DNA of 64,000 bases from a virus (taxonomy: Duplodnaviria; Heunggongvirae; Uroviricota; Caudoviricetes), in IMG/VR virus record IMGVR_UViG_3300037418_003103, one strand, 5' to 3'. Shown here one piece after another: positions 23,993 to 54,644 of this stretch; within the stretch, counting starts at the first letter, position 1; every line of letters begins with the position of its first letter. A program made the translations under genes and the position numbers. Under the pieces are notes generated by a model. The model saw nothing but the letters and a program-made list of their open reading frames with translations. It was not told the origin of the DNA and searched no databases.

Positions 23993-25588
23993 TTACATAG
24001 ACATGATGTCTATGTCTGTGTTTAGTGTAGTATACTCAACACCATCCTTGGTGGTTACAAAGAGAACGTGCTGCGTCTTGCCAAGAAGATTAATTAAAAC
24101 GTGACCATGGAACCATGCAGATGCTCCTCTATTATAAGAAAGTCTTAATTTCGTGCTAGTTCCTACGCTAGAAAATCCATCAATACGGCAGGGTTGATGT
24201 GTATGACCTGTCACCATCTTGGTAAGTTTTTTAAATTGATTTGCTGATCCTCTTGATCCAGAAGCACCAACATGACCATGACTTCCGCATTCAATATTTC
24301 TTACTTTATAACTATCATTAATACCAAGACATTTCATATTAGGATAACGCTCATTAATAATATATGGAACTACACCATTTGGTGCTTTACCCTCAAGTAT
24401 TGCTGTTGAATACTTCATATATGGAAGAGCATTTTTCATGGTTGACATCTTCCGCCAATCTGTTATTCGTAAAAACTTATCCAAGTGTTCATCATGATTA
24501 CTCTTAACAATAACCACATTATATTTCTCTACCTGTTCAAGCCATTTAAGCATCTCCTTTACTTCATTTTCCAGAGAATTAGAACCATCCATTTCCTTTT
24601 CATATAAGAGGAAAGGATCATCTATATCGTGATGACTAATTGACCTGCTATCAATAATGTCGTGTAAAAATAATTTGCTAGGATGCAGTTTTTTACACAA
24701 GTCATTTAGAGTTACATCCACTACATCCTTATCTACGACTGCTACATGAATATCACCCATGATAAGCGCTTCAACCTTATCCACCCTTGTAACTTTTTCA
24801 TTGCTCACCTTATAAAATAGATCAATAAATTCACCCTTGTTATTGGCAGTTATTTGCCTGGCAAAGAAAACTTCTTCATCTTTTATTTCTACTATACAGG
24901 CCCCGTAAGTATGATGGAATTCGCCTATCTTACCAGCCTTAGAATTTGTATAATTAGGTTTTGTACATGCACCTGTTGTAAACATCAACTTGGGCTTTGA
25001 CCCTTCCAGGACAGGATGTGATCGTAAGTGTACTCTAGGATGGCCGATCACGCAACTATGCTCGCCAGTCATTGTCTCTAAGGATGTTAATGGCATGCTA
25101 GCCGTTGGCTGCATTTTAACATCACTAAGGATAGCGATGCTGTTGTTTAAATTATGCCTATTTAGTGTTAAATAAGGAATAACTTCTTTATCCCACCAGT
25201 CATCTTTTTGAGCTTTTTCAGACCACATGCTTGTAGGGTTTTTGTATCTGTAGGGTATGACAAGAATTTGAGCTCCTATATGATCTGCATATACTTTTAA
25301 ATTATCGAAAAAATCCTTATTTACTGGTGTTGCATTTTGTGCTGAGGTTATCAAGAATCGCTTCTTATTTTTGTCATGTTCTTTTTTCTTTGCCTTAACC
25401 AGGACGTCAGGCTCGATGTCCATCTTTTCTTTAAATCCTAATTTTACAGCCCATTTTCTTACAGTTCTTTCAGATTTATTAAAGTAATGCATTAACTCCT
25501 GCATTCTATCATCCCAGGGTAATTCTTTATTTGTGTAAGTTTTTTTGGCAAATTCTATTTGCTCTGCAGTTAGTTCTTTGAACTTCAT
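23993..25588 (-). CDS. HTH plus calcineurin-like metallophosphoesterase
   Basis: SERTVRKW HTH; GDIH, LHD, SNHDE, SHGH, GHTH. Confidence 0.8.
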   Translation of the reverse strand: MKFKELTAEQIEFAKKTYTNKELPWDDRMQELMHYFNKSERTVRKWAVKLGFKEKMDIEPDVLVKAKKKEHDKNKKRFLITSAQNATPVNKDFFDNLKVYADHIGAQILVIPYRYKNPTSMWSEKAQKDDWWDKEVIPYLTLNRHNLNNSIAILSDVKMQPTASMPLTSLETMTGEHSCVIGHPRVHLRSHPVLEGSKPKLMFTTGACTKPNYTNSKAGKIGEFHHTYGACIVEIKDEEVFFARQITANNKGEFIDLFYKVSNEKVTRVDKVEALIMGDIHVAVVDKDVVDVTLNDLCKKLHPSKLFLHDIIDSRSISHHDIDDPFLLYEKEMDGSNSLENEVKEMLKWLEQVEKYNVVIVKSNHDEHLDKFLRITDWRKMSTMKNALPYMKYSTAILEGKAPNGVVPYIINERYPNMKCLGINDSYKVRNIECGSHGHVGASGSRGSANQFKKLTKMVTGHTHQPCRIDGFSSVGTSTKLRLSYNRGASAWFHGHVLINLLGKTQHVLFVTTKDGVEYTTLNTDIDIMSM

Positions 25589-43553: not shown

Positions 43554-44288
43554 TGGTGTGAGGTGGTCTCGAACCACCGACGACTGGATTTATTTCCTTG
43601 CCTGTTTAGAACAAAAAGTGTCAGTTTGACTATGACAATTAGGGCATAGTATTCTTAAATTACTTACTCTATTATCTGCCCTATCACCATTTATATGGTC
43701 TAATTGTAATACTAACGGTTTACCGTTCCAATTCGGTTCCTGTTGGCATTCATAACACTTATTTTCTAAAAATCCTTCCTCTAGGGCTCTTTTCTTAACT
43801 GTTTTAGTATTATTAGTTTTTGACGGAAAACTAAAAATATCATCTAATGTTAACCTCTTTTGGAAACCATTCTTGGTGCTACTAATACCAAAATCAAATT
43901 TAAGTTCACTCAAATTGATCTCGTATAAGCTAGCATATTTTTCAAGAGTCTGAAAATTACCTGATCTTATTTTAAGACCTAATTTCCTAAGTACCTCACT
44001 CTTTGAGTGACTGTTTTTAACAGCAATAACCAATAGTTGCTTCGTCCAATTAACAGTTTTTTTATACCCAATAGTTTTCAGCTCAAACTTCTTCAAGTAA
44101 TAGCGAACTGTTGAGGGCGATACGCCGAATTCTTTAGCTATTTCTCTTATTGATAGCTTTAGAGATACTAACTTAATTAATTTTTCTTTGTCCACCTATA
44201 TAAATAGGCGGACACGCCATAATTATAACAAATTCCTATAAAGTATTAGAAAATAAATCCTTTACTATACCAACTGAGTTATCTATTC
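43554..44288 (-). pseudogene. tRNA-Phe-like remnant split at the anticodon loop by an HNH gene
   Basis: 5' half about 44249-44288 (ACTCAGTTGGTATAGTAAAGGA); 3' half 43554-43597 with intact T-arm GGTGG-TTCGAGA-CCACC; acceptor pairs only 3/7. Confidence 0.55.
43590..44195 (-). CDS. HNH homing endonuclease with N-terminal HTH
   Basis: SIREIAKEFGVS; CYEC, LQLDHING..DN...NLRILCPNCHSQT. Confidence 0.9.
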   Translation of the reverse strand: MDKEKLIKLVSLKLSIREIAKEFGVSPSTVRYYLKKFELKTIGYKKTVNWTKQLLVIAVKNSHSKSEVLRKLGLKIRSGNFQTLEKYASLYEINLSELKFDFGISSTKNGFQKRLTLDDIFSFPSKTNNTKTVKKRALEEGFLENKCYECQQEPNWNGKPLVLQLDHINGDRADNRVSNLRILCPNCHSQTDTFCSKQARK

Positions 44289-44525
44289 TTTTTGGTTATC
44301 ATCTTCTTTATACTTAGTGTTTAAATAATGTAGATAGCCAATTTCTTCAGAAGTTAATTCACCAATAAAAAAACTATCTTTAAATTTTTCAGTATTAAAT
44401 ACGTGATATCTCACATTTTTATTCGAAAAGTATTCAACTTCAACAAGTTTGCCTAATTCAATTAATTCGTCTATAAAATATTCATACTGTTCTAAAGCTG
44501 TCATCATAATTTTAATTTTTATTTG

Positions 44526-44596
44526 AATTACATGAGAGATTCGAACTCCCGTGGTGTGGGTTGCAACCACACGCCTAACCACTCGGCCAATGTAAT
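44526..44596 (-). tRNA. tRNA-Cys(GCA)
   Basis: Cloverleaf; loop TTGCAAC; U73. Confidence 0.9.
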
Positions 44597-44597
44597 A

Positions 44598-44807
44598 TTA
44601 AGCTTCTTTTATCATTCCAAGGATTTCTCTTGGAGATACAAGAGTACACTTCTCTTGTATCTCCTTTATTCTTCTCTTGGGAATATCGTAGTGATTCTTG
44701 TGAAACCAGCATTTTTTAATCCCAAGCAACTCACCCATTAAATGCAGGTTCTCTATTGAATACGGTATGCATATCAGATGTCTCTGTTTATCACAGAAGT
44801 ACTTCAT
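44598..44807 (-). CDS. DUF4031-like protein
   Basis: NLH.M...LGIKKCWFH..HYDIP. Confidence 0.65.
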   Translation of the reverse strand: MKYFCDKQRHLICIPYSIENLHLMGELLGIKKCWFHKNHYDIPKRRIKEIQEKCTLVSPREILGMIKEA

Positions 44808-45013
44808 TTCCATTGCTTCTTTCTGTTGTACTTCCATGTTCTATACTCCCCGTATTTCCATTTTAGAATCTCTTTATTTTTTCTTCTACCTCTTGAACGA
44901 TGGTATATAATACCTTCATCCCAGTAGGGTTCAGACATCCTATCATTGGTTACAATCTTGTATTCTTTCCTACAAGTTGTCTTTTGGCTCACTGAGCCTT
45001 TAAATGGTTTCAT
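44804..45013 (-). CDS. Small basic protein ending WKYNRKKQWK
   Basis: Shares its C-terminal motif with 45433-45621. Confidence 0.65.
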   Translation of the reverse strand: MKPFKGSVSQKTTCRKEYKIVTNDRMSEPYWDEGIIYHRSRGRRKNKEILKWKYGEYRTWKYNRKKQWK

Positions 45014-45054
45014 CAATTAGATTTTTATATCTAATGTTCTGTTACTCTTTTCAT
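45011..45054 (-). promoter_or_regulatory. uORF MKRVTEH* plus hairpin next to the start codon
   Basis: Stop TAG lies in hairpin ATTAGAT/ATCTAAT; ATG 17 nt after the stop. Confidence 0.55.
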
Positions 45055-45100
45055 ATTATTTTTTTTTAACCAACAGTATTTAGTTGGCCAATTTTTAATT

Positions 45101-45451
45101 TTATACTATTCCAAATATTAGTAATTTTGCGGGCATTGCAGCAAAATAATCTGCATCATCCATTTTTGATACTGGCACTTCAAATCTTACTATTTCTGCA
45201 TTTATTTCTCCACAATTGATTAAAGTTTGATAATAGGCTACCCCTTTTCTTATCATTGTCAAAGTAGCTTGTGGGTTTTGCTTATAAAGAATTTTCTTTA
45301 TTTCATTTTTTTTGTCAATCTCTTTTTGAATCTTCCAATCATCGAAACCTGGAGGTGGTGGTACAAATCCGCGCATGTTATTTTTAATTTGTTTTTTACT
45401 TTTTTCAGACTGTTCCTCTGTTAAATTAGGAACTAATTCATTTGCTTCCAT
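45101..45451 (-). CDS. Hypothetical protein
   Basis: KKILYKQNP.A, FEVPVSKM.DA. Confidence 0.6.
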   Translation of the reverse strand: MEANELVPNLTEEQSEKSKKQIKNNMRGFVPPPPGFDDWKIQKEIDKKNEIKKILYKQNPQATLTMIRKGVAYYQTLINCGEINAEIVRFEVPVSKMDDADYFAAMPAKLLIFGIV

Positions 45452-45621
45452 TGTGTTTTTCTATTTAATTTCCAATTGATTTTGTGCCTATTATATCTGC
45501 GATATCTATTACAGCCTCTATGAGGTCTACATCTATCACAACCTAATCTATTTCTCAACCAAATTATTCTAAAGGTTCTTGAATCTGTTACTTTTTCTAT
45601 TTCTTTTGTTTTGTATGACAT
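45433..45621 (-). CDS. Small basic Cys/His protein ending WKLNRKTQWKQMN
   Basis: CDRCRPHRGCN; Arg/Lys-rich. Confidence 0.65.
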   Translation of the reverse strand: MSYKTKEIEKVTDSRTFRIIWLRNRLGCDRCRPHRGCNRYRRYNRHKINWKLNRKTQWKQMN

Positions 45622-45665
45622 TCTGAATTGTTTTTAATTCAGAAGAAGTCGTATTGTTTTTTCAT
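45619..45665 (-). promoter_or_regulatory. uORF MKKQYDFF* plus start-occluding hairpin
   Basis: Stop TGA lies in hairpin TTCTGAATT/AATTCAGAA; ATG 17 nt after the stop. Confidence 0.6.
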
Positions 45666-45684
45666 TTAATTTATATTTTACTTG

Positions 45685-45755
45685 TAGCACCACTAAGATT
45701 CGAACTTAGTCGTCGAAAATCAAAATTTCGCATGCTGCCGTTACATCATGGTGCA
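45685..45755 (-). tRNA. tRNA-Gln(TTG)
   Basis: CGAAA-TTTTGAT-TTTCG anticodon arm; GTTCGAATC T-arm. Confidence 0.88.
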
Positions 45756-46120
45756 ATTTTACTCCAAATTCTATTTTCCAGGTCCTTATAAAAGGGTTCA
45801 GGGATCTTTATTCCTCTTGACTCAAAATCCTCTACAATTTCCTGCTTCCTAAAAGTACCTTCAACTACACCATCACTCCAAAGGTTGACATGCAACCCCC
45901 AACTCTTCTTAGCTGTTATTACAGCCCTGGTTATGTTCGGATGGCGGGTAATAACCTCAAATATATCATTACTCTTAAATTCTCCATTATCAAATCTCTT
46001 AAAGGCTTCCTTTCCTGAGAATGAACCAGTTCCTTGTTTGAATCTGTAGTCCAGATTCAGATCACATCCACAAAAGATAAGTAACCCACTTCTATATGAC
46101 TTCAGAAAGAATGAGAACAT
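45746..46120 (-). CDS. Hypothetical protein (possibly frameshifted 5' end)
   Basis: Frame stays open about 40 codons upstream without a start codon. Confidence 0.5.
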   Translation of the reverse strand: MFSFFLKSYRSGLLIFCGCDLNLDYRFKQGTGSFSGKEAFKRFDNGEFKSNDIFEVITRHPNITRAVITAKKSWGLHVNLWSDGVVEGTFRKQEIVEDFESRGIKIPEPFYKDLENRIWSKIAP

Positions 46121-46253
46121 TTCATTAAAGTTTTCTGAATACTTTCTTATCTTTCTATCTTTTCTTGAACCAATCAGTTTTTTTCTTTCTTCTCTATCCT
46201 GATTGGTTACATTGCGTCCAGCCGTTTCATAATGCTCATAATTTTAATTTGTC

Positions 46254-46514
46254 TTAGGGTATTATTCCAAGTGATTTTAATTCTTTTTCAATACCTCTTC
46301 CCTCCTTATTGGAGGCGGTACAAAAGCACTGTACCGCCTCAGCTACTGCGACCTCTACATCATCGTCATAAGCCGCAATTGTATTCAGTTTGAACAATGG
46401 TATGTCAACGTCCAAGTAACCCATTCTTTGAGTTGTAATTACTGGCGTTAGGACACTATAGCTCCTTCCAGGAAGATCCATTGTTATATTCATTACTTTA
46501 TTATCATTCTCCAT
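46254..46514 (-). CDS. Hypothetical protein
   Basis: 86-aa ORF inside the tRNA array. Confidence 0.5.
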   Translation of the reverse strand: MENDNKVMNITMDLPGRSYSVLTPVITTQRMGYLDVDIPLFKLNTIAAYDDDVEVAVAEAVQCFCTASNKEGRGIEKELKSLGIIP

Positions 46515-46602
46515 ATTAATAATGTTTCATAATAAATATTAGCAAACGGTGGCAGAGGATAGGCGTGCACTAACGCCTCGTTTTACGTCAAACTTTGCCT
46601 TG

Positions 46603-46676
46603 CTCAGGCTTGTGGATTCGAACCACAGTCTCCACCGCATATATAGGTGGCATCCTAACCGCTAGACCAAACCTGA
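46603..46676 (-). tRNA. tRNA of undetermined identity (Asp/Glu-type body, 9-nt anticodon loop)
   Basis: All stems intact; CCACC-TATATATGC-GGTGG. Confidence 0.7.
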
Positions 46677-46781
46677 ATTTAAGATCTGACTAAAGCTTAG
46701 ACGCACACGTGGCTATGGTGGCTCTCCTTCGGCTGATTCAGCAAATTTTTGCTGACACCGTTTATTAATATTTAAAGAACT

Positions 46782-46858
46782 TGGCGGTTTGGACGGGACT
46801 CGAACCCGTGACCTCCGCCGTGACAGGGCGGCATTCTAACCAACTGAACTACCAAACC
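46782..46858 (-). tRNA. tRNA-Asp(GTC) with encoded CCA
   Basis: Canonical cloverleaf; loop CTGTCAC. Confidence 0.97.
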
Positions 46859-46903
46859 TTTTAATCGTTTTTAAAACACGCAGAACGATTCAAAACTGAC
46901 CTG

Positions 46904-46976
46904 AGTTCCCTGCTGGACTTGAACCAGCGACCAATCCCTATTACAGGACTGCTCTAACCAACTGAGCTAAGGGAGC
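46904..46976 (-). tRNA. tRNA of undetermined identity (irregular anticodon loop)
   Basis: Good D- and T-arms; AGTCC-TGTAATAG-GGATT. Confidence 0.65.
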
Positions 46977-46982
46977 GTTTTG

Positions 46983-47055
46983 TAGCACGAACGGGAATCG
47001 AACCCGTGACTTCTCCGTGAAAGGGAGACGTCTTAAACCCCTTGACCATCGCGCC
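46983..47055 (-). tRNA. tRNA-Glu(TTC)
   Basis: TCTCC-CTTTCAC-GGAGA. Confidence 0.95.
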
Positions 47056-47067
47056 ATTAATATTTAG

Positions 47068-47141
47068 TAGTCCATGAAGGACTCGAACCCTCAACCTCCT
47101 GATCCGTTATCAGGTGCTCTATCCAGTTGAGCTAATGAACC
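47068..47141 (-). tRNA. tRNA-Arg(ACG), A at position 33
   Basis: CCTGA-TAACGGA-TCAGG. Confidence 0.88.
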
Positions 47142-47152
47142 GTTTTTTTTTG

Positions 47153-47224
47153 AGCAGAATATTGGATTCGAACCACACATCCTGATTACAAATCAGGCGC
47201 TCTACCAGCTAAGCTATATTCTGC
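47153..47224 (-). tRNA. tRNA-Thr(TGT)
   Basis: CCTGA-TTTGTAA-TCAGG; short variable/T region. Confidence 0.85.
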
Positions 47225-47231
47225 ATTTGTC

Positions 47232-48039
47232 GGAGACGTGGGGCTCGAAACATACTTTTCTTTAATTATTTGGTATTTATTAATATGAAGCCAAAATACA
47301 CTAATAAAGAATTTGAAGAAGCAACTTCAACCACAGAATTACCTTGCGAATGTTACCAATGTTCAAATACATTTCTTAAAATTAAAAAACATATAACTTT
47401 TGAACTTAAACACAATGTCGGTGAGTGTAAATTTTGCTCACAACAGTGTTTATCTAATTTTAAAAATAAGAAAATTAGTGTTAATTGTTCAAATTGTTCA
47501 AAGACCTTTAAAAAAAACAAACATAGAATGAAATTATCATTAAATCATTTCTGTTCACGCTCATGCTCCGCAACCTATAATAACATTCATAAAACTTACG
47601 GCACTAGAAGGTCAAAATTGGAATGTTGGTTAGAGCAACAACTCACCGCATTATACCCTACCATCCATTTTGATTTCAACAAGAAAACTATTATCAAGTC
47701 TGAGCTAGATATTTACATACCATCATTATCATTAGCATTTGAATTAAACGGTATCTTTCATTACGAACCCATATTCGGCATTAAAAAACTTAACCAAACA
47801 CAGAACAACGATATTTCCAAAAGTAAAGCTTGCTTTGACGCAAAAGTTGACCTTTGTATTATAGATGTTTCATCTCAAAATTATTTCAAAGAACCTTCCA
47901 GTATCAAATTTTTAGATATCATCCGAAAAATTATTGATGACCGCTTGTTAACATCTTAGCCGCTATAAAAATAACGTTACCAGCAAACACCTCTTGGCGG
48001 TGGGTTAACTTAGTTTGCCTAGGAGACGTGGGGCTCGAA
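47232..48039. mobile_element. Endonuclease cassette flanked by an 18-bp direct repeat of a tRNA 3' end
   Basis: ggagacgtggggctcgaa at 47232-47249 and 48022-48039. Confidence 0.75.
47285..47959 (+). CDS. Zinc-finger plus PD-(D/E)XK (Vsr/DUF559-like) homing-type endonuclease
   Basis: CxxC/FCSxxC repeats; ELDIYIP..AFELNG.FH; antisense to the array. Confidence 0.8.
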   Translation: MKPKYTNKEFEEATSTTELPCECYQCSNTFLKIKKHITFELKHNVGECKFCSQQCLSNFKNKKISVNCSNCSKTFKKNKHRMKLSLNHFCSRSCSATYNNIHKTYGTRRSKLECWLEQQLTALYPTIHFDFNKKTIIKSELDIYIPSLSLAFELNGIFHYEPIFGIKKLNQTQNNDISKSKACFDAKVDLCIIDVSSQNYFKEPSSIKFLDIIRKIIDDRLLTS

Positions 48040-48094
48040 CCCACCTGACCTGATACCCTTCCGACACGGTATAAGCGTGAGGGGATAGACTCCA
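48020..48094 (-). tRNA. Atypical D-armless tRNA-Ile(TAT)-like RNA
   Basis: CACG-CTTATAC-CGTG arm, GTGGG-TTCGAGC-CCCAC T-arm, no D-stem. Confidence 0.6.
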
Positions 48095-48105
48095 ATTTTT
48101 AATAG

Positions 48106-48178
48106 AGCGAAGTGTCAGATTCGAACTGCATCCCCTGGTTGGAAGCCAAGTACTTTAAGCCATTAAGCTACACCTCGC
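48106..48178 (-). tRNA. tRNA-Gly(TCC)
   Basis: Loop CTTCCAA; GCG/CGC acceptor with U73. Confidence 0.9.
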
Positions 48179-48184
48179 AATTTG

Positions 48185-48258
48185 TGGTCCCTGCTGGATT
48201 CGAACCAGCGGCCCTTGGTTTGTAATACCAATGCTCTAACCAACTGAGCTAAAGGACT
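48185..48258 (-). tRNA. tRNA-Val(TAC)
   Basis: TTGGT-ATTACAA-ACCAA. Confidence 0.9.
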
Positions 48259-48259
48259 A

Positions 48260-48298
48260 TGGAGCCGAGAGGCAGCATCCCTGCCTGTTCAACTCGGC
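48260..48298 (-). ncRNA. 39-nt CCA-terminated tRNA minihelix-like RNA
   Basis: GCCGAG-TTGAAC-AGGCAG-GGATG-CTGCCT-CTCGGC-T-CCA. Confidence 0.55.
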
Positions 48299-48534
48299 AT
48301 ATACTCTTTATAATTTTATTCAAAATAATCTGTCGCAATAACCAACTCATCTAATTTCTTTTTACTAACCTTCTTTGCTATTATCTTAAGATCATACTCT
48401 TCCCACCTAATTTGTGCTTTACGAATTGCTTCCTCTTCTGATTCGGCAAGAGTATAACAATACATTGGTGTTTTTGCTCCTTTCATTATAGGTATAAATA
48501 CAAAATATAATTCATTCATTTGTTAATTTTTTTG

Positions 48535-48608
48535 TGGAGTAGGCGAGCATCAAACTCGCTACCTCCTGCATGCAAAGCAGGTGCTCTATCCAACTGAGCT
48601 TCTACCCC
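48535..48608 (-). tRNA. tRNA-Ala(TGC)
   Basis: G3:U70 pair; loop TTTGCAT. Confidence 0.92.
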
Positions 48609-48626
48609 ATTTAATTCTTTTCTTTG

Positions 48627-48699
48627 TAGCCTTGAATGGATTCGAACCATTATCCTCGGCTTAGAAGGTCGATGCTCTGGTCCATTGAGCTACAAAGCT
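48627..48699 (-). tRNA. tRNA-Arg(TCT)
   Basis: Loop CTTCTAA. Confidence 0.92.
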
Positions 48700-49026
48700 A
48701 TTGTTGCACGAAAATAGTGTATTTAGCTAAATATACTTTATTTAAAGTATATTTTATAATTTTTAATTGGGTTGTCGGTTAATTTGTTAGTACTTTCCAA
48801 ATACCATCCAATATCATACGTTTCGCTATCTATATTACTAATTTCTATTTTCATACCATCCTTTTTCAATTTTTCAATAGTTTCTGCTGAAACAAAACAC
48901 TCAAATAATGTTACATAGTTTAACTTATTTTCTGGGTTATAGGTGGTATTATGTATTAATGTTATAATATCTTCATACGTTTTTTCATGAAACTTTCCCA
49001 ATTCTGTCATAATTTTTAATTTTTTA

Positions 49027-49101
49027 GCGCGCAGTCAAGGAATCGAACCTTGTCCATGCTAGGTTTTGGAGACCTGCCGCATACCATTATGCTACCACGC
49101 A
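49027..49101 (-). tRNA. tRNA-Trp(CCA)
   Basis: Loop CTCCAAA; T-arm CAAGG-TTCGATT-CCTTG. Confidence 0.85.
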
Positions 49102-49295
49102 TTTTATTTTTCGTATTCAAACAACTTAACAAAAATCAGAACCCTCCCTCTTTCTCTTTCAAATCTAAGCTCCGCTTTATCATCAACATCTTTCGCCTTC
49201 TTTAAGTACTTATCGTATATCTGATCAAAGTCCTTATTAAAATCCTTTTCTTTCTCACTCCCTAACTTCCTGTAACGCTCTGTGTTTTCCATATT

Positions 49296-49325
49296 AATAA
49301 AAAACCCCCGATTTTGTCGGGGGCT
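49296..49325 (-). terminator. Intrinsic terminator/attenuator at the head of the tRNA array
   Basis: AGCCCCCGA-CAAAA-TCGGGGGTT-TTTTATT. Confidence 0.85.
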
Positions 49326-49346
49326 ATCTAAGTTACTTTTATATTT

Positions 49347-49445
49347 TTAAAAATATTCAGTATCATACATAACACACCCCAATTCAATGTCTTCGCATTG
49401 TGCCCAATTAAATCGTATCCCTGTTTCTATGACTACTTGTCTCAT
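49347..49445 (-). CDS. Leader peptide MRQVVIETGIRFNWAQCEDIELGCVMYDTEYF (32 aa)
   Basis: Lies between promoter boxes (49475-49495) and the terminator; codons mirror the anticodons of the array. Confidence 0.7.
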   Translation of the reverse strand: MRQVVIETGIRFNWAQCEDIELGCVMYDTEYF

Positions 49446-49474
49446 TATTATTATGTTTTAACTTTCTTTGTCAT

Positions 49475-49495
49475 TATAAATATAATGCAAATATA
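49475..49495 (-). promoter_or_regulatory. Tandem host-type (TATATTTG) and late-type (TATTTATA) promoter boxes for the tRNA array
   Basis: Both motifs lie 30-50 nt upstream of the leader ATG. Confidence 0.65.
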
Positions 49496-49533
49496 CTAAA
49501 AGTAATTATTACAACCAACTTTTTTATTTTTTT

Positions 49534-50172
49534 TTAAACATCAAGCTGTGAAGTGATGCTTATACTAAAAAGATAGGTATTATTTGTTTCATTAAATCCA
49601 TCTAAATAAGCGTTGATATGGGAAACATATCCGCCTGGATTACCTTCAACTCCATGACTATTGTAATTTAATTCTTTCGCAAACTCTTTAGGATTACCAG
49701 AAATACTACTAGGTATCTGAAGTTTAAATTCCATTGTTGATCCTTCCTCTGACTCAGAAACCTTAAGAGTATTCTTTAAGATATATTTACCATAAGGCTC
49801 TATGGAATGATAAGCATCATCCAAATATTGAGCTGATCGTTTTTCTGAAATGTAAGGAGGTAACTCTGCATCGTCCCATCCAAGCTCAAATGAAGCAACC
49901 TTTATTGCTTCTTGTCTTAACCTCTCAGCACCTTCTTTATCTCCTAGATTAAATTGGGCCTTTCCTTTATCGTACAACTCAATAGCTTTCCTTTCGGCTT
50001 CTTTATTTGAACCATGATCACCATCGGTTGGATCTGTTTCGCTATAAAGACTAGTTTCTAATATATCATCAGGTCTCTTAATTTTATTAAAATTATCTTT
50101 AAAAGATTCTATGATAGCCTTCTGTTTTTGCCTCAATATTAGTTTCTTTTCCTTATTTGTAAGTATTTTCAT
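49534..50172 (-). CDS. Hypothetical protein, probable late/virion class
   Basis: TATTTATA box; basic N-terminus with IIE/ILE. Confidence 0.6.
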   Translation of the reverse strand: MKILTNKEKKLILRQKQKAIIESFKDNFNKIKRPDDILETSLYSETDPTDGDHGSNKEAERKAIELYDKGKAQFNLGDKEGAERLRQEAIKVASFELGWDDAELPPYISEKRSAQYLDDAYHSIEPYGKYILKNTLKVSESEEGSTMEFKLQIPSSISGNPKEFAKELNYNSHGVEGNPGGYVSHINAYLDGFNETNNTYLFSISITSQLDV

Positions 50173-50412
50173 TTAGAGGTTGTTTTATTATAAATATAAG
50201 CATAAATATAAATGTTAACTTATACAACACTCATTAAATGTCAAGTTTTAGTTGTTTAAATTTAGATTTCTTTTGTTTTTTATTCTCAGCATTAACTATC
50301 TCAGTATACTTAATGCATAATTTGTATATTGCATCATACAGGTCTGTTTTGATTTCTGTATCCCTTAATTCATGCTTTGCAAGTGCTGTAAAATCTTCTG
50401 GTTTCATATACT

Positions 50413-51183
50413 TTATTTTAATTCCTTTGTAAATGGCTCAAGTCCTATTAATTTTCTATTTTCTTCAACTCTGTTAAGACCAACTTCAAAAGAATGCGGA
50501 TCATTCTCCATGCAAATCCAGCCTCTCTTTAAATTATCACAAGCCACTGCGATGGTAAATGAACCAGCGCAATTATCCAAGACAACCTCCCCTTCATTTG
50601 TGTACGTTTTTATAATATATTCACATAACTTAACTGGTTTTTGTGTGGAGTGAAGATTTAATTTTTGTCTATCAGACGGAAATTGAAGGACACTAATTGG
50701 ATATCGTTCAGTTGAATCATAAGTTGTGTAATTACCGTATTCACCATAAATTTCCCCTTGTGGCGTATTCCTCTTATGGTGAGCCGTTGAAACCTTTCTC
50801 TTATGACCATGTGTTTTGATGTAATTATATGTTGGTAAATGCTTATAGAAAACAAGAATGTTCTCATGTGCCTTCATTGGCGCCTTTTTGGCATTTAAAT
50901 GGCCAGTGGGTCGTGTTTTTTGCCAAATCCATTCATACCTAAGCATCTCTAGATTACTGGCTCCAAGAACCTTGTCAAACGGCGTTTGAGCAAAGAGACA
51001 AATAGCCCCATCATCCTTAATTACACGTTTATATTGCTTCCATAATTTTTCTAAGTCTATTATTGAATCCCATTTGCAATGTGTTGTTCCATATGGCAAA
51101 TCAGCGAATATTAAATCAACGCTCTTGTCAGGTATTTTATTCATCTCAATTAAGCAATCTCCGAAATAAGCCTTGTTAATCAT
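50413..51183 (-). CDS. N4/N6 DNA methyltransferase (beta class)
   Basis: GDCL, DLPYG, HENILVF, HSTQKP, VLDNCAGS. Confidence 0.92.
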   Translation of the reverse strand: MINKAYFGDCLIEMNKIPDKSVDLIFADLPYGTTHCKWDSIIDLEKLWKQYKRVIKDDGAICLFAQTPFDKVLGASNLEMLRYEWIWQKTRPTGHLNAKKAPMKAHENILVFYKHLPTYNYIKTHGHKRKVSTAHHKRNTPQGEIYGEYGNYTTYDSTERYPISVLQFPSDRQKLNLHSTQKPVKLCEYIIKTYTNEGEVVLDNCAGSFTIAVACDNLKRGWICMENDPHSFEVGLNRVEENRKLIGLEPFTKELK

Positions 51184-51186
51184 TAA

Positions 51187-52032
51187 TTATTTACTTGTTT
51201 TGTCGTTTAAATTTAGATATCTAATAGCAGGCGGTATCGGTGGAGCAGGTGCTTGGGTACCTTGTATTGAAGTCTTTACATTGCTTTTTATGTCTCCTTC
51301 TTTTAATGGCTCAGATTTATTAGGGCATAGATCTTCACCAAAGAAAGATGAAAACATGTTGCTAGCTTTATCTACCCAGTCAGTAATTTTTGTTATAAAA
51401 ATTGGTGACGAAAGATCACGATGACGTCTACTCAATTCAATATCCACCATAGTTTCTAAATTTATAAGATTTGATGAGTTAAGTATAACACTATCAGCCA
51501 CAATTGAGTCCTGTTCGGTTTCTGATAAGTGATTCCCCTGGTATGGATTATCAGGCCTACGTATCTCCCAAATTTCACCTCCAAGTTCTTTAACAGCATC
51601 AGATTCATGACGAAACCTAATATCAGATAGTAGTAGTTTCATGTCAGGAGTTAACTTTATTTGTTTCTCATACCATAATTTAAAACGCTGAACCCAAATC
51701 TTTCGTCCAAAAGGAAATTCACCCTCTTTTAAATGATTCTGTATATCAAATTGAAACAGGTCAGTTCCAACAATTTCCATTGCTCTCCTAGGAGACAATC
51801 CCCACCTAGGATCAACTGTTTCTTTCTGTTCCTGGGTTCCCCATAGTTGTTCCCTACTGAAGTCAAATATATGTACCATTGCTTCCTTCATTGGATCTCC
51901 GAAGGCATACTCTTGGTAACCATATTTACTAATAAGGTATTTAGCCGTGGTAGATTTACCAGAAAATTTTCGTCCTTTGATGCCTATTATTTTCATTCTA
52001 TTTAATTTTTTCATTGGGTATTTTATCAACAA
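51187..52032 (-). CDS. Deoxynucleoside monophosphate kinase
   Basis: GIKGRKFSGKST, FGDPMKE, PR..M...GT, SDIRF..E, HLSE. Confidence 0.88.
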   Translation of the reverse strand: MLIKYPMKKLNRMKIIGIKGRKFSGKSTTAKYLISKYGYQEYAFGDPMKEAMVHIFDFSREQLWGTQEQKETVDPRWGLSPRRAMEIVGTDLFQFDIQNHLKEGEFPFGRKIWVQRFKLWYEKQIKLTPDMKLLLSDIRFRHESDAVKELGGEIWEIRRPDNPYQGNHLSETEQDSIVADSVILNSSNLINLETMVDIELSRRHRDLSSPIFITKITDWVDKASNMFSSFFGEDLCPNKSEPLKEGDIKSNVKTSIQGTQAPAPPIPPAIRYLNLNDKTSK

Positions 52033-52235
52033 CTATACACACTCCAAAAGGTTTTTGGCATGTATGAATAACTTCAACCACTCTATAATATACATTATTT
52101 AAATACAGACACTCTCCCTGTCTTGGAAGTACCTTTAAATTCACTTCCTTAAGCTCTTCCCACTCTTTATTTATAATTCTAATTTTCACTTTAATTTAAA
52201 ATCCTATCCATTATATTTATTATAAAATATTTATC

Positions 52236-52310
52236 ATGATAAAAGACGAAAGACAATACGGATGCGGTTGTAAGAAACCTAAGCCGCCAGTAACAGTTAA
52301 AAAACCTTAA
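52236..52310 (+). CDS. 24-aa peptide MIKDERQYGCGCKKPKPPVTVKKP
   Basis: Two TATTTAT boxes upstream and a strong hairpin downstream. Confidence 0.5.
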   Translation: MIKDERQYGCGCKKPKPPVTVKKP

Positions 52311-52350
52311 AAATGACCCCTTTATAGTTTAGTATAAAGGGGCTCATTTT
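52310..52350. terminator. Bidirectional-type hairpin terminator
   Basis: AAAATGACCCCTTTATA/TATAAAGGGGCTCATTTT. Confidence 0.7.
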
Positions 52351-52442
52351 CTCATAAGCACGAAACGGTAGTTTTGGTAAGGCACCCAAGTTTTGGTTTA
52401 ATTTTTCATAGGCTTTGGTTAATCATAGGTATTGGATAGCCT

Positions 52443-53156
52443 TTAGGATATTTGATTAATTTTTATGTCTTTTTTTGATTTTATTATTCCGTCTATTATT
52501 CCGTATTTTAGGCTCTCTTCAGCATTAAGCCATAAATCTCTATCTGCGTCTTTTTTAACTTGTTTAGAAGTTTTACCAGTATATGAGCCTAATAAGTCAA
52601 ATAATACATCATTAAACTTTTCTGCTTCATTAATAGATATTCTCATATCAGCAATAGTGCCCTCAGCGCCTGATGAAACTTGATGGAGCATAACCCTACT
52701 AAATCTAAGAGAGTATCGCTTACCTTTGGTCCCTGAGCCTAAAAGGACACTTCCCATGCTCGCAGCCATTCCAGTATTTATAGTTATTATATCTGATGAT
52801 ACATAATCCATTACGTCTACAATACTAAGGCCATTTGTAACACTTCCACCAGGGCTATCCACATGCATTATAATATCTTTCTTTTCTACGTTGTCAAGAA
52901 ACATCAGCTGTGCCTGAACAACAGTACTCATCTGTGAGTTAACTGGTCCAGAAACCCAAAGTATCCTATCCATTAGCATCCTTGAGAAGATATCCATTTG
53001 AGTTACCCTCAGCTCTCTTTCTTCAAGAATATATGGCGTAAGAGACGCGTCAGAACCATACAACTTATTTTGTATGACAGCCCAATTGTCAAATTGCTGT
53101 TGATGTATTCCTAAATGATTGGTGGCGTAATTTTTAAACTCTTTTGCGTAATTCAT
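52443..53156 (-). CDS. clpP: ClpP protease proteolytic subunit
   Basis: DIFSR..DRI, SPGGSV, GMAASMG, MLHQ, DRD.WL.AEE. Confidence 0.95.
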   Translation of the reverse strand: MNYAKEFKNYATNHLGIHQQQFDNWAVIQNKLYGSDASLTPYILEERELRVTQMDIFSRMLMDRILWVSGPVNSQMSTVVQAQLMFLDNVEKKDIIMHVDSPGGSVTNGLSIVDVMDYVSSDIITINTGMAASMGSVLLGSGTKGKRYSLRFSRVMLHQVSSGAEGTIADMRISINEAEKFNDVLFDLLGSYTGKTSKQVKKDADRDLWLNAEESLKYGIIDGIIKSKKDIKINQIS

Positions 53157-53167
53157 TAAATTTTTAA

Positions 53168-53584
53168 TTAAGCAGCTTCTTCTTCTAATTTTTCCTGAAA
53201 TAATGTTTTAATACTCTCATTTAGTACTTCGTATTTATCATATCCGTATTTTCTAAGTAATAGTGAATAAGTTTTAACGTCTGGTGTAGTAATAACCATC
53301 TTTCCTTTTTCTGTATCAAAATGGATGCGTGCAAGTAATTCTTCTACTACCATTTTTTTCTGTTCTAATTCTAATTTTTCAAATATGCTTCCATTAATAA
53401 CTACAATTACATCCACATTTGTCATATGCTTAAGAATTTCATTAGCTTTGGTCACTTTGCCAATTTCTTTAAGTTCGCTATTATCTAATAGCTTAACATT
53501 AATATGGTTATCCAGACCAGTAGCATCTAATAAGCCATCAAATAATTCTTGTACGTCATCGTACACTTCTTCAAATTTATTCAT
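53168..53584 (-). CDS. Phage metallopeptidase-like protein (HE motif degenerate)
   Basis: GKVTKA, VIVVIN, PDV..Y...RKYG. Confidence 0.5.
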   Translation of the reverse strand: MNKFEEVYDDVQELFDGLLDATGLDNHINVKLLDNSELKEIGKVTKANEILKHMTNVDVIVVINGSIFEKLELEQKKMVVEELLARIHFDTEKGKMVITTPDVKTYSLLLRKYGYDKYEVLNESIKTLFQEKLEEEAA

Positions 53585-53657
53585 TTTATTTATCGTTTAA
53601 TTTAAATAAAAATACTAATAGAATCATTTAATCACAACTTTTTTAATGAATAAATTT

Positions 53658-54644
53658 TTAATTAATATCACTTAAATTCTTTAGATTTTCAATTAGCTTC
53701 TTTTCTTCTTTTGTAATTGATGAGGGTATTTCTATATCAAGTGTAACAATCATATCACCTCTAACGTCTGAATTAATAAATTTCATACCTTTATTCTTAA
53801 CCCTAAGATTGTCTCCAACCCTACTAAATTCAGGTATGGTTATTTTTATAAGGGTTCCTTCAATTGTTGGAATCTCCACCTTATCACCTAGAACTAATTG
53901 CGGATAAGTTAATTTTAATTTATAATTCAAATCATTAGCATTTCTTACAAACTTATCATGTGGCAGCACATTTATATGAATAATTAAAGATCCTTCAATA
54001 CCACTCTTGATTCCGTTCCCCTTGCCTTGTATAGAAGTAGACATGCCAGTATAAACACCAGCAGGAAACATCACTTCAATGGAATCTTCCGATAAAATAA
54101 TACCCTTCCCATTGCATGCAGTACAAATAATTTCAGGTACATTACCACTCCCTGAGCATGCGTGACAAACGTGATAATTTTGCATAGAACCAAACGGTGT
54201 ATTGGTCGTCTGTATTACACTACCTGTGCCATGACAATTTGTGCAAGTTTTTAAATTAGAACCACCATTTGAATTACACTCCGTGCAATTTTTATATCTT
54301 CTATAAGTGTATGTTTTTTTTGTAGGATTAAAAACCTGTTCAAGAGTCAAGTCAATTTTTATAGCCAGATCACTGCCAGTTCTAATCTGTTGTTGTCTAA
54401 ACATACTAGCAAATTCTTCAAATGCGTTAAAATTATCTCCATTGTGACCATGCCTATCATATTTTGAACGCTTTTCTGGGTTTGACAATACCTCATTAGC
54501 CTCATTAATTTCTTTGAATGTATTTTCATCCCCACCCATATCTGGATGATATTTTTTACTCAATCTCCTGTAGGCTTTTTTAATTTCTTCCTGAGAGGCT
54601 GTTTTATCTACCTCCAGTATCTCGTAATAATCTCTTTTATCCAT
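53658..54644 (-). CDS. dnaJ: DnaJ chaperone
   Basis: DYYEILEV, HPD, four CxxCxGxG-type motifs, C-terminal domain. Confidence 0.95.
   Translation of the reverse strand: MDKRDYYEILEVDKTASQEEIKKAYRRLSKKYHPDMGGDENTFKEINEANEVLSNPEKRSKYDRHGHNGDNFNAFEEFASMFRQQQIRTGSDLAIKIDLTLEQVFNPTKKTYTYRRYKNCTECNSNGGSNLKTCTNCHGTGSVIQTTNTPFGSMQNYHVCHACSGSGNVPEIICTACNGKGIILSEDSIEVMFPAGVYTGMSTSIQGKGNGIKSGIEGSLIIHINVLPHDKFVRNANDLNYKLKLTYPQLVLGDKVEIPTIEGTLIKITIPEFSRVGDNLRVKNKGMKFINSDVRGDMIVTLDIEIPSSITKEEKKLIENLKNLSDIN

Follow-up and report, generated by a model that had tools for sequence, protein, structure and literature searches.

In the leader-peptide attenuators of the enterobacterial ilvGMEDA/ilvBN (Ile/Leu/Val) and thr (Thr/Ile) operons, a short leader open reading frame (ORF) with regulatory codons for several amino acids follows the promoter, the 5' arm of an intrinsic terminator can alternatively pair with a segment in or past the 3' part of the leader ORF, and ribosome stalling leads to read-through. 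A corresponding arrangement was found at positions 49296-49495, on the minus strand ahead of a tRNA array, in a 64,000-nucleotide stretch of viral DNA (IMG/VR record IMGVR_UViG_3300037418_003103, Caudoviricetes; hereafter referred to as the window). From its sequence, this element is very likely a ribosome-mediated (leader-peptide) transcription attenuator that gates the phage tRNA operon. The ilv and thr operons produce biosynthetic enzymes, whereas the phage cassette would control tRNAs, the decoders themselves. The phage sensor samples as many as 10 amino acids, most of them with one or two codons, in contrast to the codon runs of the ilv and thr leaders. It is also phage-encoded, with promoter and translation contexts of the Bacteroidota type, and the stop codon in the phage cassettes lies between the antiterminator and the terminator, 20-35 nt ahead of the terminator arm. 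No sequence similarity to the amino-acid leader families of Rfam was present, so the likeness to ilv and thr is one of mechanism.

Other described systems share single features with this locus. The pheST attenuator (pheM leader) of Escherichia coli phenylalanyl-tRNA synthetase senses the supply of one charged tRNA and is, like the putative phage element, a case of leader-peptide attenuation of a translation-apparatus gene, but it is cellular, has a single amino-acid input and controls a synthetase rather than tRNA genes. In T-box riboswitches, tRNA status also decides between terminator and antiterminator ahead of genes serving tRNA charging. Unlike the element described here, a T-box binds uncharged tRNA directly and requires no translation. 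Its conserved features are Stem I, the specifier loop and the T-box sequence, and the locus showed none of them. The tRNA clusters of T5-like and T4-like phages are interspersed with small ORFs and homing endonucleases, as is the array in the window, and we know of no leader-peptide control of such arrays. To our knowledge, leader-peptide attenuation is established for amino-acid biosynthesis and a few synthetase genes, and not for tRNA genes. A full-text literature search returned no description of leader-peptide control of tRNA genes, with about 1.7 million further PubMed Central articles lying outside its coverage.

The G+C content of the window was 32.6%. Its A1-like DNA-transfer protein, a protein that it has in common with T5-like phages of Flavobacteriia, was approximately 44% identical to the versions of Maribacter, Flavobacterium and Cellulophaga phages, which identifies it as a T5-related phage of marine Flavobacteriia. 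The same set of proteins was found on a 345-kb contig.

The element and the genes that follow it were laid out as below.

49518-49488, minus strand: promoter of the Bacteroidota type (-33 TTG at 49518-49516; -7 box of the TAnnTTTG type at 49495-49488).
49445-49347, minus strand: leader ORF, 32 codons plus stop, with an ATG start.
49442-49389, minus strand: sensor segment, codons 2-19 of the leader, in which every one of the 11 clean array tRNAs finds a codon that it can decode.
49382-49369, minus strand: predicted 5' strand of the antiterminator, in codons 22-26, forming 6 + 5 pairs around a 3-nt bulge with 49327-49317.
49327-49299, minus strand: intrinsic terminator (9-bp stem 49325-49317/49311-49303 with six G-C pairs, loop 49316-49312, six T at 49304-49299).
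49292-49104, minus strand: 62-aa ORF, the first gene past the terminator, starting 6 nt after the T-run and stopping 3 nt before tRNA-Trp.
49100-44525, minus strand: array of 13 tRNA or tRNA-like genes (ARAGORN), in the order Trp-CCA, Arg-UCU, Ala-UGC, Val-UAC, Gly-UCC, Thr-UGU, Arg-ACG, Glu-UUC, an aberrant gene, Asp-GUC, an aberrant gene, Gln-UUG and Cys-GCA.
46903-46976, minus strand: aberrant tRNA-like gene with a 6-nt anticodon loop (ARAGORN call ?(Leu|Ile)).
46602-46676, minus strand: aberrant tRNA-like gene, Tyr(AUA) according to ARAGORN and unreported by Rfam; either its anticodon stem is mismatched or its loop has 9 nt.

The order of promoter, 32-codon ORF, terminator and tRNA array had been claimed in an earlier reading of the sequence (hereafter the original prediction) and was borne out, as was its list of leader codons 2-19. 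The 62-aa ORF between the terminator and tRNA-Trp had been overlooked. The conserved promoter word reached to approximately 49474. A 28-nt word from it occurred once in the window and recurred almost unchanged in L004 and L005, two diverged relatives, as well as in other cassettes described below. The putative transcription start is placed from the position of this promoter. The leader ORF began 43 nt past the -7 box, was preceded by an A-rich stretch, and was also predicted by gene callers in other assemblies. The 5' arm of the terminator together with two flanking bases (49327-49317) doubles as the partner of the antiterminator. On the minus strand between 44000 and 51000, no intrinsic terminator other than that at 49325-49299 was found.

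The 11 clean tRNAs comprised Trp-CCA, Arg-UCU, Ala-UGC, Val-UAC, Gly-UCC, Thr-UGU, Arg-ACG, Glu-UUC, Asp-GUC, Gln-UUG and Cys-GCA. To evaluate how far the leader matches them, codons were scored under standard wobble rules against 300,000 random 31-codon windows drawn from the long ORFs of the phage itself. All 11 clean anticodons were decodable within 18 codons of the leader, and none of the 300,000 windows from the phage's own genes achieved this (0/300,000); under independent draws from the codon usage of the phage, the same coverage was reached at a rate of 3e-6. The overlap that the original prediction had described thus held against the phage's own codon usage. The six frames of the window hold 158 small ORFs (25-45 codons), and of these the leader ORF alone reached full coverage. 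Thirteen of the 18 sensor codons were decodable by the array, compared with 32% of codons in the phage's genes. At the amino-acid level, all 10 amino acids served by clean tRNAs were present in the leader (P=0.012 against 31-codon windows of the phage's own genes), with P=0.0034 for coverage inside an 18-codon stretch. Requiring full coverage and no more than six additional amino acids, a condition that captures the missing Lys, Ser, Pro and His, gave 0.002. As originally observed, these four amino acids were missing from leader and array alike, even though Lys makes up 9.5% of the phage's proteins. The codon overlap between leader and array is real and not a product of chance.

Several details of the match needed revision. 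Nine of the ten exact Watson-Crick codon matches held and the tenth, Ile-UAU, fell, because the gene assigned to it (46602-46676) is aberrant; the identity Ile-UAU was rejected on the Tyr(AUA) call, the stem mismatch or 9-nt loop, and the lack of an Rfam report. Similarly, the Phe-like identity of 46903-46976, said to be covered by TTT, was rejected on its 6-nt anticodon loop and the ?(Leu|Ile) call, and this gene is unassignable. In both of these tRNA-like genes the cloverleaf arms were good and the anticodon loops abnormal. Asn had been named as the sole amino acid of the sensor without an identified tRNA; the codons of the segment lacking a clean cognate were in fact GTC, ATA (twice), TTT and AAT. 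The C-ending codons TGC and GAC, put forward earlier as matching G34 anticodons despite the AT bias, were uninformative, since G34 reads C- and U-ending codons alike; in this phage TGC accounted for 39% of Cys codons and GAC for 24% of Asp codons.

The leader transcript (49488-49298, terminator included) folded at -41 kcal/mol with a z-score of -3.8. When the 3' arm of the terminator was withheld (fold of 49400-49314), the antiterminator pairing with the 5' arm was the minimum-free-energy fold (-20.6 kcal/mol, z -3.5), in agreement with the pairing originally claimed. When the antiterminator state was enforced on the full transcript, it was approximately 10 kcal/mol less stable than the terminator state, which leaves the antiterminator only a kinetic mode of action, like that of classical attenuators. 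For modelling of the ribosome, its footprint was masked and the RNA was folded as present when the terminator 5' arm has just emerged. With the modelled A site at codons 3-18, the terminator 5' arm paired with codons 22-25, whereas with the A site at codons 20-28 it was largely unpaired. Folding of the window RNA also predicted the following helix, which covers part of the antiterminator and may be a candidate 1:2 or pause hairpin.

49415-49380, minus strand: predicted 9-bp helix of codons 11-13 (49415-49407) with codons 20-22 (49388-49380).

Relatives of the locus were collected. L002 and L003 were identical copies from two JGI metagenomes, and L005 and L004, reached via neighbouring proteins, were diverged relatives. 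The 62-aa ORF was 71% identical in L005 and was also present in L004, and L004 encoded a homologue (40% identical) of the 212-aa protein whose gene precedes the promoter (50172-49534, minus strand). In both relatives the promoter sequence was almost unchanged, and an ORF (30 or 35 codons), the terminator and the 62-aa ORF were retained as well. In the terminator of L004, one base pair was altered on both sides with the hairpin preserved. The leader peptides were poorly conserved among the window, L005 and L004, and the G-rich segment complementary to the terminator arm stayed in the 3' third of the leader ORF. In L005, the antiterminator duplex reached -17.9 kcal/mol and stood out from dinucleotide shuffles (p=0.003). 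When positions 48900-50300 were compared as DNA with the phage collection, only tRNAs matched, and no relatives of the 212-aa and 62-aa neighbours were found in the viral contigs searched. An exact match to the terminator hairpin (L001) was rejected, as it belonged to an unrelated phage without tRNAs.

To search beyond these relatives, viral and metagenome contigs were scanned with the promoter word, and the loci were filtered by a pipeline blind to leader composition, requiring a -7 box, an ATG ORF of 14-60 codons, a hairpin with a T-run, and a same-strand tRNA no more than 500 nt away. Most metagenome matches to the promoter word were generic Bacteroidota promoters ahead of unrelated genes, and only the subset followed by tRNAs was used. 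In total, 39 promoter/mini-ORF/terminator/tRNA cassettes with 26 unique leaders were obtained from phage and metagenome loci. None was found among 120 sampled cellular-genome loci with the same promoter word, which is a sample and no proof of absence from bacteria. In nearly all cassettes, the leader covered the amino acids of its downstream array, as in the following examples.

L012:655-735 and L144: leader rich in Leu, Val and Cys; array of Cys, Val and Leu.
L078, 3807-3712, minus strand: leader rich in Phe, Asp, Glu and Ala; array of Asp, Phe, Glu and Ala.
L172:581-673: leader rich in Thr, Tyr, Gln, Pro, Lys and Gly; array of Pro, Gln, Tyr, Thr, Gly and Lys.
L029 and L175: leader rich in Ser, Ile, His, Asn, Trp and Arg; array of Trp, Ser, His, Asn, Ile and Arg.

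Codons 2-13 of L029 encoded exclusively Ser, Ile, His, Asn, Trp and Arg, and mixed arrays (L227, L007 and the window) were preceded by likewise mixed leaders. When leaders and arrays were permuted among seven classes with one representative each, the true pairing was the best of 5,040 on two measures. Permuted pairings averaged a cognate fraction of leader residues of 0.36 and covered 0.69 of the array amino acids, compared with 0.64 and 0.99 for the true pairing. With two cassettes of a cultured phage added (nine families), the true pairing was the maximum of 200,000 random permutations. Co-varying leaders ahead of related arrays, on which the original prediction had staked its case, were thus present.

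The match was specific to the reading frame and to one part of the leader. Across the same nucleotides of 17 cassettes, 72% of residues were cognate in the leader frame, compared with 28% and 22% in the other frames, and the leader frame contained no stops, compared with 24 and 41. Of the residues ahead of the antiterminator, 72% were cognate, a share that fell to 39% behind it (Fisher 1.5e-12), in a count that includes related cassettes and overstates their independence. Leader sequences were not conserved from one cassette family to another, and the antiterminator segments co-varied with quite different, unrelated terminator sequences. The antiterminator duplex reached p<=0.05 against dinucleotide shuffles in 73% of the 26 leaders (median p 0.02) and lay inside codons 16-29 in 24 of them. 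The distance from stop codon to terminator arm was confined to 20-35 nt (mean 24.8, sd 3.4), within a range of -12 to +75 permitted by the pipeline.

Two observations were made on the tRNAs of these arrays. The array of L172, past its terminator at 695-726, included a tRNA with the anticodon CUA (amber-suppressor type, called Pyl by ARAGORN), which hints at stop-codon reassignment there. The Cys and Val tRNAs at L007:877-1057 and L012:838-924 were unusually long (83-89 nt) and may have insertions or long variable arms.

The cassette was also identified in cultured phages. In Cellulophaga phage phi4:1 (NC_021788.1), an unannotated 22-codon leader at 87065-87133 (L374:866-934) was followed by a terminator and a 22-tRNA array, and all 21 residues after Met were cognate to the array (21/21). 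Maribacter phage Panino (PP540027.1) carried a cassette at 25321-25401 (L375:422-502), whose ORF bears the annotation hypothetical protein and has 21 cognate residues out of 25, and a second cassette on the other strand ahead of Tyr, Ser, Ser, Asn and Phe tRNAs. These cassettes matched the geometry of the family, with antiterminator p values of 0.013-0.057 and stop-to-arm distances of 26-30 nt.

The following mechanism is proposed. The strong promoter would fire and a ribosome would translate the 32-codon leader close behind the polymerase. A freely moving ribosome would cover or pass codons 20-28 while the polymerase makes the terminator, so that 49382-49369 could not pair; the hairpin at 49325-49303 would then form and transcription would end ahead of the 62-aa ORF and the tRNAs. 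A ribosome held in codons 2-19 would leave 49382-49369 free to pair with the terminator 5' arm on its emergence, and this antiterminator pairing would allow the polymerase to read through into the 62-aa ORF and the array. Codons 2-19 appear to have been selected to call on every tRNA species in the array one or more times, which would tie tRNA synthesis to the decoding speed of those codons. Because the products decode the sensed codons, the control loop would be self-limiting, with negative feedback as phage tRNAs build up. On this basis, the phage probably makes the array tRNAs only when ribosomes read the leader codons slowly. Slow decoding could have several natural causes, possibly including anticodon nucleases, host shut-off, late-infection demand and starvation. 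We infer that the leader is translated, that its translation is coupled to transcription, that the switch runs in the direction given here, and that it reaches over the whole array. The interpretation as a leader-peptide attenuator, already put forward in the original prediction, is supported in its mechanism by the co-variation, the frame specificity, the position of the cognate codons before the antiterminator, and the folds.

Within and around the array, further features were detected.

47270-47959, plus strand (opposite to the array): HNH endonuclease gene inside the array (Pfam/PHROG).
47907-47876, minus strand: candidate internal promoter of the Bacteroidota type, antisense to the HNH gene.

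Together with a second HNH/homing-endonuclease gene just beyond the array end (43590-44195, minus strand), the HNH gene at 47270-47959 looks like a secondary insertion. In the gap between tRNA-Gly and tRNA-Thr, an HDV-like ribozyme candidate (47947-48019, minus strand) matched RF02682 over its full length with 38.9 bits, short of the gathering score of 44, and the 3' end of the candidate overlaps with the end of the HNH gene on the other strand. A 79-aa ORF adjoining tRNA-Cys (44598-44837, minus strand) matched DUF4031 (E 5.6e-8). In Pfam and PHROG scans of the array ORFs, DUF4031 and HNH were the sole matches, and the 62-aa ORF matched no family in either collection. The 62-aa protein is Lys-rich and belongs to a family of 55-70-aa proteins that also occurs in cellular Bacteroidota contigs beside GGACT-domain genes, with no link to tRNAs. 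As its homologues sit in such tRNA-unrelated cellular contexts, a search via this ORF added no cassettes. Upstream of the 212-aa ORF, a run of minus-strand genes (50413-54644) encoded a DnaJ-like protein, a phage metallopeptidase, a ClpP-like protease, a dNMP kinase and an N6/N4 DNA methyltransferase, and this run was kept in L005.

Several observations weigh against the attenuator. For five of the 18 sensor codons the array offers no clean cognate tRNA, and two of its genes are aberrant. The antiterminator duplex of the window, taken alone, had an energy of -12.4 kcal/mol and did not stand out from dinucleotide shuffles (p=0.12). The model also formed the antiterminator without a ribosome and with a ribosome on the stop codon. 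Termination would thus require tight coupling, with a ribosome located between the two strands blocking their pairing sterically. The 62-aa ORF, further small ORFs and the opposite-strand HNH gene interrupt the array and weaken the case for control of the distal tRNAs, which the candidate internal promoter could drive independently of the attenuator; in favor of a single regulatory unit, the tRNAs sampled by the leader are spread over both array halves. Among the cassettes, the 50-codon ORF of L103 had only 3 of 49 cognate residues, several arrays were cut by contig ends, and the counts are not fully independent because families share descent.

The alternative explanations differ in what they leave unaccounted for. 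Small ORFs and leaky terminators are abundant in phage genomes, and the leader ORF could be an ordinary small phage protein with its own promoter and a leaky terminator, its codon overlap reflecting shared usage or chance without any switch. The p value of 0.12 for the window antiterminator and the annotation of the Panino ORF as a hypothetical protein are in line with this. The peptide, however, diverged among close relatives while the ORF, the terminator distance and the antiterminator persisted, the overlap fell below 3e-6 against the phage's own genes, and leader composition followed the array across families in a frame-specific manner, concentrated before the antiterminator; we regard an ordinary protein as most unlikely. 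It is similarly improbable that the leader acts as RNA only, a riboregulator (T-box-like or otherwise) with direct binding of tRNAs or a protein and an incidental open frame. T-box leaders do sense tRNA and act through antitermination, and the leader is strongly structured (z -3.8). Against this, an Rfam scan of 44000-50000 at E<=1 yielded tRNAs and one ribozyme-like match and nothing inside 49296-49495, where neither a T-box (RF00230), nor an amino-acid operon leader (His, Trp, Thr, Leu and similar), nor any other cis-regulatory family matched. Moreover, the absence of stops in the sensor frame of the 17 cassettes, the confinement of the array match to that frame and the lack of sequence conservation among cassette families argue against an RNA-only leader. 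Phage factors commonly cause terminator read-through, and the terminator might instead be overridden by a processive antitermination factor of the phage or by infection timing, with the leader ORF merely modulating RNA stability. The upstream protein at 53658-54644 weakly matched a Q-like antiterminator in PHROG (E 5.7e-6), and its assignment as DnaJ-like was strong. Such a factor would leave both the match between codons and array and the co-variation of antiterminator and terminator unexplained, and there is very little to recommend it as the cause.

The nature of the trigger is a separate matter, since a host-defense trigger would be a special case of the leader-peptide attenuator: anticodon nucleases or other tRNA-depleting systems would stall the leader ribosome and induce replacement tRNAs, as in the multi-input OR gate of the original prediction. 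Phage tRNAs have been reported to rescue translation following anticodon-nuclease attack. In the model, the switch would be tripped by the loss of any one tRNA that codons 3-18 require, and the sensor has one or two codons per tRNA species and no single-codon runs. On the other hand, nuclease attack, host shut-off, late codon demand and amino-acid starvation would look alike in the sequence, and Pfam and PHROG scans linked no defense or anti-defense gene to the cassette. Stalls at early codons may also work less well, because the predicted helix of codons 11-13 with codons 20-22 could form, and the inputs would perhaps be unequal. We consider defense as the trigger rather doubtful.

If the attenuator operates as proposed, the sensor (a translating ribosome) and the product (tRNAs) would close a direct feedback loop on decoding capacity, which would explain how phages with large tRNA arrays avoid unneeded tRNA production. 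It offers a testable link from phage tRNAs to tRNA-targeting defenses or shut-off of the host, and direct testing is feasible because cultured phage-host pairs carry the cassette (Cellulophaga phage phi4:1 and Maribacter phage Panino). The leaders label which tRNAs form one regulatory unit, and may aid array annotation and the spotting of tRNAs of altered identity. In addition, the compact modular design of approximately 190 nt, with inputs set by codon choice, would be of interest for synthetic sensors of translation stress. More tentatively, it is possible that phages of Flavobacteriia, from Panino (approximately 77 kb) and phi4:1 (approximately 146 kb) to the contigs of approximately 345 kb, run a codon-resolved, self-correcting tRNA supply in which each block is induced by slow decoding of its own codons, detecting and repairing the loss of any single host tRNA, including its cleavage by anticodon nucleases; this would be the first natural case of leader-peptide attenuation of tRNA genes, with up to ten inputs.

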